Shown here piece by piece: positions 37,809-37,967 of a stretch of 64,000 nt of DNA (within the stretch, counting starts at the first letter, position 1; every line of letters begins with the position of its first letter). Origin of the DNA: an uncultured bacterium (GTDB lineage Bacteria > Auribacterota > Erginobacteria > Erginobacterales > Erginobacteraceae); NCBI GenBank assembly GCA_964587835.1, contig CAZPMN010000001.1, positions 88,968 to 152,967 of the forward strand. Direction: 5' to 3'. Made by a program: the position numbers and the translations under genes. The notes under the pieces were generated by a model that saw only the letters and a program-made list of their open reading frames with translations, searched no databases and was not told the DNA's origin.

Positions 37809-37967
37809 TCAAGTGTTGGGGCAAGCCGTGAGGTTGCAGGGGATACCGAATTCCGAATCATAGGGCGTGGTGATGGAAGGAGTATTGCAGACCGCCATCT
37901 GGGCGGTATTGAAGCTGAGCTCAACGACCTTGAGTTCGGGTTTTCGGTAGAGCTTTTTCTTTTTCAT
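37809..37967 (-). CDS. Candidate RiPP precursor peptide (52 aa): MKKKKLYRKPELKVVELSFNTAQMAVCNTPSITTPYDSEFGIPCNLTACPNT
   Basis: Found by manual translation of the minus strand between the rSAM and kinase genes; it is not in the ORF track because it is shorter than 60 aa. AGGAGG lies 7 nt upstream of the ATG at 37967. The start overlaps the 3' end of the rSAM gene by 47 nt in another frame. The Lys-rich leader with a KPELKVVELSF segment resembles the PqqA leader (KKPAFIDLRLGLEVT); the core has 3 Cys. Confidence 0.4.
   Translation of the reverse strand: MKKKKLYRKPELKVVELSFNTAQMAVCNTPSITTPYDSEFGIPCNLTACPNT

Follow-up and report, generated by a model that had tools for sequence, protein, structure and literature searches.

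A conserved candidate precursor peptide gene in a radical SAM- and C25 peptidase-bearing relative of linear polyphosphorylated peptide gene cassettes

Linear polyphosphorylated peptides (LPPs) are peptides made by ribosomes and modified after translation (RiPPs) of Bacillota, described for the LppA/K/B/S/N/D proteins of Paenibacillus alginolyticus (Popov et al., Nat Commun 2026; PMC13381572). The LPP gene clusters sit inside capsule loci, and their occurrence was stated to be restricted to Bacillota (PMC13381572). They encode a leader peptidase similar to signal peptidase I (SpI), LppS (catalytic S29/H68/D93), the discrete RiPP recognition element (RRE) LppB, the HprK-like kinase LppK, the NTP transferase LppN and an MsbA-like exporter, and the labels given to the genes in the supplementary tables include TIGR02228, PqqD, TIGR04249/TIGR04352/TIGR04355 and NTP_transf_5 (PMC13381572). 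The leader, YxxPxVLxHQxIxFETxxS, is removed by an RRE-dependent cut after T-1 (FET↓AQS), Ser3 of the core is polyphosphorylated, and an intact core of 45 residues is released (PMC13381572). Genes for related proteins are found in a 64,000-nucleotide stretch of contig CAZPMN010000001.1 from an uncultured bacterium of Candidatus Auribacterota (the whole stretch is referred to below as the window), where an open reading frame (ORF) of 52 codons lies between the gene for a radical S-adenosylmethionine (rSAM) enzyme of the SPASM type and that for an HprK-like kinase.

An earlier note on this DNA had proposed the ORF as the precursor peptide gene for the rSAM-SPASM, HprK-like and PqqD-like proteins, and the analysis reported here supports that proposal: related loci keep the ORF in the same place, and it is under purifying selection. 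The gene is real, its place between the rSAM and kinase genes is fixed, and it belongs to a cassette of seven genes that is conserved across phyla. With a probability of roughly 0.8, as judged from sequence comparisons, it is a genuine precursor peptide gene of an rSAM- and C25 peptidase-bearing relative of the LPP-type RiPP cassettes. The LPP family itself is known, but a variant of its cassette with an rSAM enzyme has not been described before.

Two further types of peptide are relevant to the comparison. In the lasso peptides of the paeninodin/pseudomycoidin type, a kinase and NTP-transferase pair phosphorylates and then glycosylates a Ser residue (PMC8498205). PqqA has the WxxP version of the [Y/W]xxP leader, and the RREs of pyrroloquinoline quinone (PQQ) biosynthesis are listed as WxxP binders (supplement, PMC13381572).

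Conservation and coding signature of the small ORF

The ORF (37809..37967, minus strand) runs from ATG to TGA over 52 codons and a stop and encodes MKKKKLYRKPELKVVELSFNTAQMAVCNTPSITTPYDSEFGIPCNLTACPNT. Its start overlaps by 47 nt, in a different frame, the rSAM ORF that ends at 37921, and its stop codon ends at 37809, 12 nt before the ATG of the next gene at 37796; the mechanical ORF start of this kinase gene is a TTG at 37799. The coordinates, overlap and spacing stated in the earlier note, as well as the AGGAGG 7 nt upstream of the start, are all correct. The size of the ORF alone is no evidence of a gene: a 16-kb part of this DNA is overlapped by 132 ORFs with 30 aa or more. The pattern AGGAGG-N7-ATG occurs twice in the 64 kb, at the starts of the peptide and of ClpB, and by itself carries no significance because 0.81 copies are expected by chance. 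GGAG-type motifs are found 5' of the peptide start in the window and in four related loci (L003, L009, L001 and L008). It is the conservation of the ORF and a coding-type pattern of substitutions that place it beyond chance.

Related loci were reached via homologues of the adjacent 289-aa protein with 41–57% identity (L001–L010), by an alignment-based scan of species genomes (L015–L018) and from homologues of the rSAM enzyme (L019 and L020). The alignment-based rescan did find loci, but a search of genome contigs with the ScmC-like kinase protein alone had given nothing. The earlier note had named a lack of conservation as a refutation of its proposal, and this test does not refute it: each of the related loci that were recovered has a small ORF of the same pattern between the rSAM and kinase-like genes, in most cases with an overlap onto the rSAM stop codon. 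Same-position orthologues were taken from L001, L003, L005, L006, L008, L009, L010, L011, L015–L018, L019 and L020. About 18 distinct peptides were obtained, the hosts being Ca. Auribacterota, Anaerolineaceae and unclassified metagenome-assembled genomes. A word-index protein search with the peptide recovered only the peptide itself, and an exhaustive HMMER (phmmer) search was then needed; among 1.84 billion representatives it revealed another five small peptides with this pattern, two of which adjoin ScmC-like and C25 genes.

The amino acid identity of the peptides is 44–62% across at least two phyla. By the method of Nei and Gojobori, the proportion of synonymous differences (pS) between seven orthologues is 0.6–1.0, i.e. 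near saturation, and that of nonsynonymous differences (pN) is 0.1–0.35. Outside the overlap with the rSAM gene, L005 and L006, which form the closest pair, differ by six synonymous changes and one replacement change. As synonymous sites are near-saturated and replacement sites are constrained, the ORF is, on this substitution pattern, a protein-coding gene under purifying selection.

The earlier note had called the ORF unannotated. This was overstated, as the exact 52-aa protein is present as a predicted product in NCBI and Logan records (181.5-kb contig), where it forms an unnamed singleton cluster. Small ORFs at the peptide position had also been called already in L004, L005, L010 and L020. 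The description of the segment as markedly AT-richer than its flanks was too strong: the GC content is 50.9% versus a window mean of 58.9%, and this value is only at the 12th percentile of 159-nt windows. No second copy of the precursor was found in the 64-kb window.

Scans of the peptide and 12 family members with Pfam and NCBIfam models gave no meaningful family at E ≤ 10, and nothing of relevance came up when the peptide profile was run against PDB sequences. A Sec signal peptide was considered for the N-terminus and rejected, because the Lys-rich start is not followed by a hydrophobic h-region. A sigma-70-like site, TTGCCA-18 nt-TATATT (10/12 matches; 37994..38023, minus strand), lies within the 3' end of the rSAM gene and ends 27 nt before the peptide ATG. 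Its TATATT overlaps conserved rSAM codons for Ala-Ile-Leu. An internal promoter at this place, put forward on a consensus match only, could raise transcription of the peptide relative to the enzyme.

Leader, core and the LPP-type cassette

In an alignment of 12 family sequences, K5, Y7, K9, P10, L17, C27 and C44 are invariant and C49 is nearly so. When more remote members and two LPP precursors from the literature are included, Y7, P10, C27 and C44 are still invariant (19 sequences). The leader is of the [Y/W]xxPx[L/V/I/F/A] class that is bound by PqqD-type RREs, and the peptide and the LPP precursors can be brought into one register, Y-x-[KR]-P-x-[VL] ... F-[EN]-T↓A-Q, with a Pro–Phe spacing that is one residue shorter here and with the HQ missing. 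By this analogy, cleavage is predicted after T21 (FNT↓AQM) and would release a core of 31 residues. The sequence C-N-x-P-S and a second Cys are common to the peptide and two Paenibacillus LPP precursors. All rSAM-linked peptides have a third Cys, 4–5 residues past the second, which both of the Paenibacillus precursors compared lack. This correlation is the best available pointer to the site at which the rSAM enzyme may act. Between the conserved Cys residues the core varies. The description of the leader as PqqA-like in the earlier note was right in kind, as both are of the [Y/W]xxP class; the nearer relatives are the YxxP leaders of LPPs and lasso peptides rather than PqqA, and none of the 12 family peptides scanned gave a match to a PqqA model at E ≤ 10.

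The conserved string of genes, defined by tblastn of the window proteins on all loci together with the called genes, encodes the rSAM-SPASM enzyme, the peptide, an ScmC-like kinase, an SpI-like peptidase, a C25 peptidase, an NTP_transf_5 protein and a PqqD-family RRE (Table 1). The assignments made for the neighbours in the earlier note hold: the rSAM enzyme has CX3CX2C and a SPASM-type fold, the kinase has an HprK/PEPCK fold, and the PqqD gene is in the same gene string. Four of the proteins, SpI-like, PqqD, kinase and NTP_transf_5, are on the sequence evidence homologous to the LPP machinery. Hidden Markov models (HMMs) built from LPP sequences of Supplementary Data 1 (PMC13381572; nine sequences for SpI) were compared with the six-frame translation of the window, which comprises 1156 segments. 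The LPP-RRE HMM matched the PqqD ORF only (6.6e-10), and the LPP-SpI HMM matched the SpI-like ORF only (1.8e-17). In BLASTP against LPP proteins, PqqD showed 21–33% identity (best 7e-13) and the SpI-like protein 28–37% (best 4e-16); PqqD is less close to the RREs of paeninodin-type lasso peptides (8e-4). The best match of the window PqqD in the whole PDB is 9x8z chain B, which is LppB, and its residues N44, Y71 and D81 align with N33, Y60 and D70 of LppB. In LppB, N33 fixes a kink at the leader Pro, and D70 forms a hydrogen bond to the leader Tyr (PMC13381572). With an HMM of the LPP leader only, nine family peptides ranked among the first 13 of the 4193 segments from six-frame translation (hypergeometric 7e-21).

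The rSAM enzyme has, besides CX3CX2C (CNLRCPYC), seven conserved C-terminal Cys residues in a SPASM-type arrangement. Its best PDB sequence match is SkfB (2.5e-16), and PqqE and CteB are also among the best. An AlphaFold2 model with a mean predicted local distance difference test of 86.5 was matched by Foldseek to SkfB, BlsE, SuiB, PqqE and anSME, with template modelling scores up to 0.67. Neither the model nor the alignment showed an N-terminal RRE in the enzyme. The rSAM gene overlaps the start of the peptide in every locus. At least 265 rSAM clusters are related to the window enzyme at E ≤ 1e-40.

In the SpI-like peptidase, G.SM.P, HR and GD..D are invariant, and SM, HR and GD..D are so with the LPP SpIs as well. 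The C25 peptidase has invariant G880-H881 and C915 and a hydrophobic segment at the N-terminus, and it is syntenic in 12 loci. The NTP_transf_5 gene is syntenic in L001, L003, L005, L006, L009, L015, L017 and L020. The PqqD gene comes after it in L015, L020 and the window itself; in L010, L018 and L019 its place is directly upstream of the rSAM gene. The N-terminal domain of the ScmC-like kinase was tried as an RRE and rejected, as its model has a PEPCK/HprK fold that lacks a winged helix, and PqqD is encoded by a gene of its own.

Table 1. Coordinates of the peptide gene, the cassette and adjoining genes in the window
Feature	Position	Strand	Remarks
Candidate precursor peptide gene, LppA-like	37809..37967	-	52 codons + stop; same-position orthologues; pS vs pN
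Inferred leader, codons 1–21	37905..37967	-	Lys-rich N-terminus, Y7-R-K-P10-E-L12, F19-N-T21
Inferred core, codons 22–52	37812..37904	-	AQM start; C27 (followed by NTPS), C44 (NLTA), C49 (PNT end)
Shine-Dalgarno AGGAGG	37975..37980	-	7 nt, then ATG at 37967
Radical SAM/SPASM enzyme, 371 aa	37921..39036	-	Pfam Radical_SAM 7.9e-26
HprK/PEPCK-fold P-loop kinase, ScmC-like, 289 aa, LppK equivalent	36927..37796	-	Predicted PEPCK/HprK fold
SpI-like (archaeal-type signal peptidase I) soluble Ser/His/Asp peptidase, LppS equivalent, candidate leader peptidase	36397..36930	-	TIGR02228 1.3e-9; start codon uncertain
Membrane-anchored Peptidase_C25, PorU/gingipain-like, 1008 aa	33214..36240	-	Pfam Peptidase_C25 7.9e-76, Propeptide_C25
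NTP_transf_5 nucleotidyltransferase-like protein, 363 aa, LppN equivalent	31106..32197	-	PF14907 5e-47
Discrete PqqD-family RRE, 100 aa from ATG at 31046, LppB equivalent	30744..31046	-	Pfam PqqD 2.8e-18
Two WecA/MraY-type Glycos_transf_4 genes, directly upstream of rSAM	39041..41151	-	Syntenic in most loci, absent from L001
PMT_2-type polyprenyl-phosphate-dependent glycosyltransferase, directly downstream of PqqD	29088..30728	-	Also L003, L006, L019, L020

The related loci show a number of variations. A PhdYeFM antitoxin/PIN toxin gene pair stands directly after NTP_transf_5 in L005 (11853..12549) and L006 (11908..12601), which is the slot of PqqD in the window, L015 and L020, and in L009 an Unstab_antitox gene is inserted before the rSAM gene. 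L001 has an ORF for a 73-aa zinc-ribbon-like protein (4626..4847, plus strand) between the SpI-like and C25 genes, with a weak match to MqsA_antitoxin (8e-4); the corresponding gap in the window is only 157 bp and is without this ORF. The variant cassette of L019 comprises PqqD, rSAM, three-Cys peptide and ScmC-like genes, which are followed by genes for an acetyltransferase and an ABC-2 transporter replacing the SpI-like and C25 peptidases. Its peptide, MGSRIRQKRLYGKPQLTQISISPEEAALTNCKHATGSTGNAANKCLDVALCKAVGS, is uncalled (10070..10190, plus strand), and genes for two B12-binding rSAM proteins and another rSAM protein are nearby. In the window, the C25 and NTP_transf_5 genes have between them, on the other strand, a gene for an S-adenosylmethionine-dependent methyltransferase (Methyltransf_23/11/12/25; 32198..33163, plus strand). 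Methyltransferase genes are also present near the L019 and L020 cassettes, and the product of the window gene could serve as an additional tailoring enzyme.

The 40 kb around the cassette form a polysaccharide locus that includes genes for Wza, Wzz, a Wzy-like protein, a flippase and many glycosyltransferases. A 2420-aa ORF (1509..8771, plus strand) is found at the edge of this locus. The cassette genes are overlapped, antisense or in a different frame, by Pro-, Arg- and Gly-rich ORFs of 126–331 aa (36849..37736 and 38008..39003, plus strand; 36305..36685 and 38955..39497, minus strand); these are GC-driven shadow ORFs with no family matches. At 51754..53745 (minus strand), two ORFs match PF10712, 'NAD-specific glutamate dehydrogenase' (1e-76 and 5.6e-91). 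They are exactly antisense to an Hsp70/DnaK gene (51784..53718, plus strand; 5.4e-278) and look like dnaK shadow ORFs rather than real genes.

Proposed maturation of the peptide and alternative explanations

In the proposed pathway, the PqqD RRE would bind the leader of about 21 residues through Y7-x-x-P10-x-L12 as an added beta-strand, with the Tyr held by D81; this is suggested because the contact residues are conserved. The bound peptide would be presented to the rSAM-SPASM enzyme, which may crosslink the Cys/Thr/Pro-rich core at one or more sites or modify it by radical chemistry in another way. Action of the enzyme on the core is proposed because of the overlap of the two genes, the PqqD–rSAM adjacency in three loci and the third-Cys correlation. 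That the three core Cys residues are thioether sites, as the earlier note had suggested, is a guess, and the most plausible product would be Cys-derived thioethers at the C44-x4-C49 pair. The HprK/PEPCK-fold kinase and the NTP_transf_5 protein would phosphorylate and then further decorate a hydroxyl group, following the LPP and lasso precedents. Candidate acceptors are T29 and S31, which are the best conserved candidates, because the LPP acceptor Ser3 is replaced by Met here. The soluble SpI-like peptidase would remove the leader after F19-N20-T21, by analogy with LppS acting on FET↓AQS. Speculatively, the membrane-anchored C25 peptidase might act on the exported product or on a carrier in the polysaccharide pathway.

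A more far-reaching version of this pathway is doubtful. In it, the kinase and NTP_transf_5 protein would attach the crosslinked peptide through a phosphodiester to a product of the flanking WecA-like, GT1 and PMT_2 enzymes, either a sugar or a polyprenyl-linked glycan, and the C25 peptidase would trim or transpeptidate it outside the cell. If this were true, the product would be a conjugate of a RiPP with a capsular or exopolysaccharide, a class of cell-surface molecule not yet described.

Several observations weigh against the assignment of the ORF as an rSAM-modified LPP-type precursor. The position of the LPP acceptor Ser3 is occupied by Met24 in the window peptide and by Met or Leu across the family; therefore, the kinase has to act at a different site or on a different substrate. 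An HMM of the full LPP precursors ranked the peptide ORF first of the 1156 segments, but its E-value of 0.28 is not significant alone, and because of this the homology of the leaders rests on the family-level enrichment and the motif register. The window peptide is itself not among the 15 segments obtained with the leader-only HMM at E ≤ 20. The PqqD gene of the window is 6.7 kb away from the peptide gene, and in L005 and L006 no PqqD gene was found up to 1.3 kb after NTP_transf_5. A Pfam scan of about 40 window ORFs, outside of which a few window-edge ORFs fell, revealed no MsbA-like or other ABC exporter, and the route to the extracytoplasmic C25 peptidase is therefore unexplained. The remaining points concern the rSAM enzyme. 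Two of the three Cys residues align with Cys in Paenibacillus LPP precursors, a family for which the text and tables of the LPP paper report no rSAM protein; the rSAM enzyme need not have the Cys residues as its targets. The sugar-modifying enzymes BlsE (cytosylglucuronate decarboxylase) and DesII are among the closest structures to the rSAM enzyme, and the locus is rich in glycosyltransferase genes.

These last observations, together with the position of the rSAM gene after two WecA-like genes in most loci, are what the main rival explanation draws on. It holds that the peptide is phosphorylated and decorated as in LPPs, that the rSAM enzyme has as its substrate a sugar or nucleotide-sugar, or else a different protein from the polysaccharide pathway, and that the Cys residues serve for a disulfide or metal binding. 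This is improbable, as the WecA-like genes do not precede the rSAM gene in L001, L010, L018 and L019 and its overlap with the peptide is kept there, and as PqqD directly upstream of rSAM in three loci is a PqqD/PqqE-like arrangement. The full seven-Cys SPASM motif, the RiPP maturase SkfB as best sequence match and the confinement of the third Cys to the rSAM-linked peptides in the comparison with two rSAM-less LPP precursors also argue for a peptide substrate. Less probable still is a sacrificial scaffold like that of PQQ or mycofactocin, on which the rSAM enzyme would crosslink a few residues and from which two peptidases would excise a cofactor or small metabolite. The combination of PqqD, a PqqE-like rSAM enzyme and a [Y/W]xxP leader would suit it, as would the two different peptidases of the cassette. 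Mycofactocin is glycosylated, and the glycosyltransferase genes nearby recall this. Against it, none of the scanned window proteins matched a PqqB, PqqC or Mft model and the peptides matched no PqqA model, and conservation spans the whole 30-residue core with three spaced Cys rather than a short terminal motif. The homologous LPP system, moreover, releases its core intact.

Three invariant Cys residues, the tight upstream overlap and the close downstream spacing could also be accounted for by a small accessory protein that is not a substrate and handles metal or Fe-S clusters, or by a regulatory upstream ORF that couples translation to that of the kinase. This explanation ranks slightly lower again. 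The ORF has a leader/core architecture with an RRE-binding motif, the leader resembles those of experimentally validated LPP precursors, the amino acid sequence and not just the reading frame is conserved, and variability of the core between conserved Cys residues is typical of RiPPs. Finally, a chance ORF without a product might have been expected from the abundance of short ORFs in this GC-rich window and from the expected frequency of AGGAGG-N7-ATG (about 0.8). Its probability is negligible, and it is already refuted by the conservation of the peptide over at least two phyla with saturated synonymous sites. The scaffold, accessory-protein and chance explanations are thus progressively less likely.

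If the ORF is a precursor gene as proposed, it provides a concrete candidate substrate for a widespread, uncharacterised rSAM/PqqD/HprK-like cassette. With the cassette, LPP-type machinery extends from Bacillota to Ca. Auribacterota and Chloroflexota, and it proves combinable with radical SAM chemistry and a gingipain-like protease. The steady setting of the cassettes in polysaccharide loci, as for LPPs in Bacilli, strengthens the unexplained link of phosphorylated RiPPs to capsule and biofilm biology. The short core of 31 residues is tractable for mass spectrometry.

Comparison with known systems

The cassette proteins all stay below the curated cut-offs of the NCBIfam systems. Three window proteins have their best NCBIfam matches among the models of SynChlorMet (ScmC/D/E/F, TIGR04248–04251), GeoRSP and HprK-related kinases A/B, systems in which a PqqD-like protein is likewise combined with a PqqE-like rSAM-SPASM enzyme and/or an HprK-related P-loop protein. 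The scores are, however, far from the cut-offs, being 20.5/125 bits for ScmC, 86/400 for ScmE, 27/100 for ScmD and 75/400 for the GeoRSP rSAM protein. In the literature searched, nothing relevant was found on SynChlorMet, GeoRSP, HprK-related cassettes or ScmC, nor on rSAM with PqqD and HPr kinase or on rSAM with RiPP and peptidase C25.

The PqqA/PqqD/PqqE system shares with the window a short [W/Y]-x-x-P peptide, PqqD and an rSAM-SPASM enzyme, and PqqE is among the closest matches in sequence and structure. It differs in that the core here has Cys residues and lacks the Glu-x3-Tyr pair, and the scores of PqqD and PqqE are under the curated cut-offs. The maturases of sactipeptides and ranthipeptides (SkfB, CteB, PapB and StsB) are similar in the presence of an rSAM-SPASM/twitch enzyme beside a Cys-containing precursor, SkfB being the best PDB match in both sequence and fold. 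In contrast to them, the RRE is discrete here and not fused to the N-terminus of the rSAM enzyme, and the NCBIfam scores for curated maturases (StsB, PapB, AlbA and SCIFF) are far under the cut-offs, e.g. 90 versus 625 for StsB and 64 versus 340 for PapB. The C25 peptidase has the catalytic domain of PorU and gingipains with the conserved His and Cys and a propeptide-like domain, but differs from PorU in its NF033707 score (239 bits versus a cut-off of 420), its N-terminal membrane anchor and its setting in a RiPP-like cassette.

With lasso peptides of the paeninodin/pseudomycoidin type, the cassette has in common the [Y/W]xxP leader, a discrete PqqD-type RRE and the kinase and NTP-transferase pair. 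The conserved C-terminal Ser of those peptides is absent from the window family, and neither the Asn-synthetase-like macrolactam cyclase nor the B2 transglutaminase-like cysteine peptidase of lasso systems was among the scanned window ORFs or the called genes of related loci.

The LPP cassettes are the closest. Both systems have the same four enzyme families, namely an SpI-like peptidase, a discrete PqqD RRE, an HprK-like kinase (ScmC/HprK-rel) and NTP_transf_5, a YxxPx[V/L/I] motif in the leader, F-x-T-A-Q at the junction, which here is a predicted one, and a location in a capsule or exopolysaccharide locus. The cassette described here differs in the addition of rSAM-SPASM and C25 proteins, Radical_SAM, SPASM and Peptidase_C25 being absent from the LPP paper as far as its text and tables go. 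An LPP is a linear product, whereas a gene of the modifying rSAM-SPASM class overlaps the precursor gene in all loci here. At about 31 residues with three Cys, the predicted core is short, and the window has no MsbA-like exporter among the scanned ORFs. The hosts are Ca. Auribacterota (L017 among them) and Chloroflexota (L018, Anaerolineaceae) rather than Bacillota, and the enzymes are only 21–37% identical. The LPP paper itself contains minor clusters in its sequence similarity network (SSN) whose SpI and RRE pairs are 33–37% identical to the window PqqD and SpI-like proteins (Supplementary Data 1, PMC13381572). Their hosts are Chloroflexota (Brevefilum fermentans), Acidobacteriota, Planctomycetota and candidate phyla, and they were left uncharacterised (PMC13381572). 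Judging by this resemblance, the pairs of the minor SSN clusters may belong to the cassette type found here.

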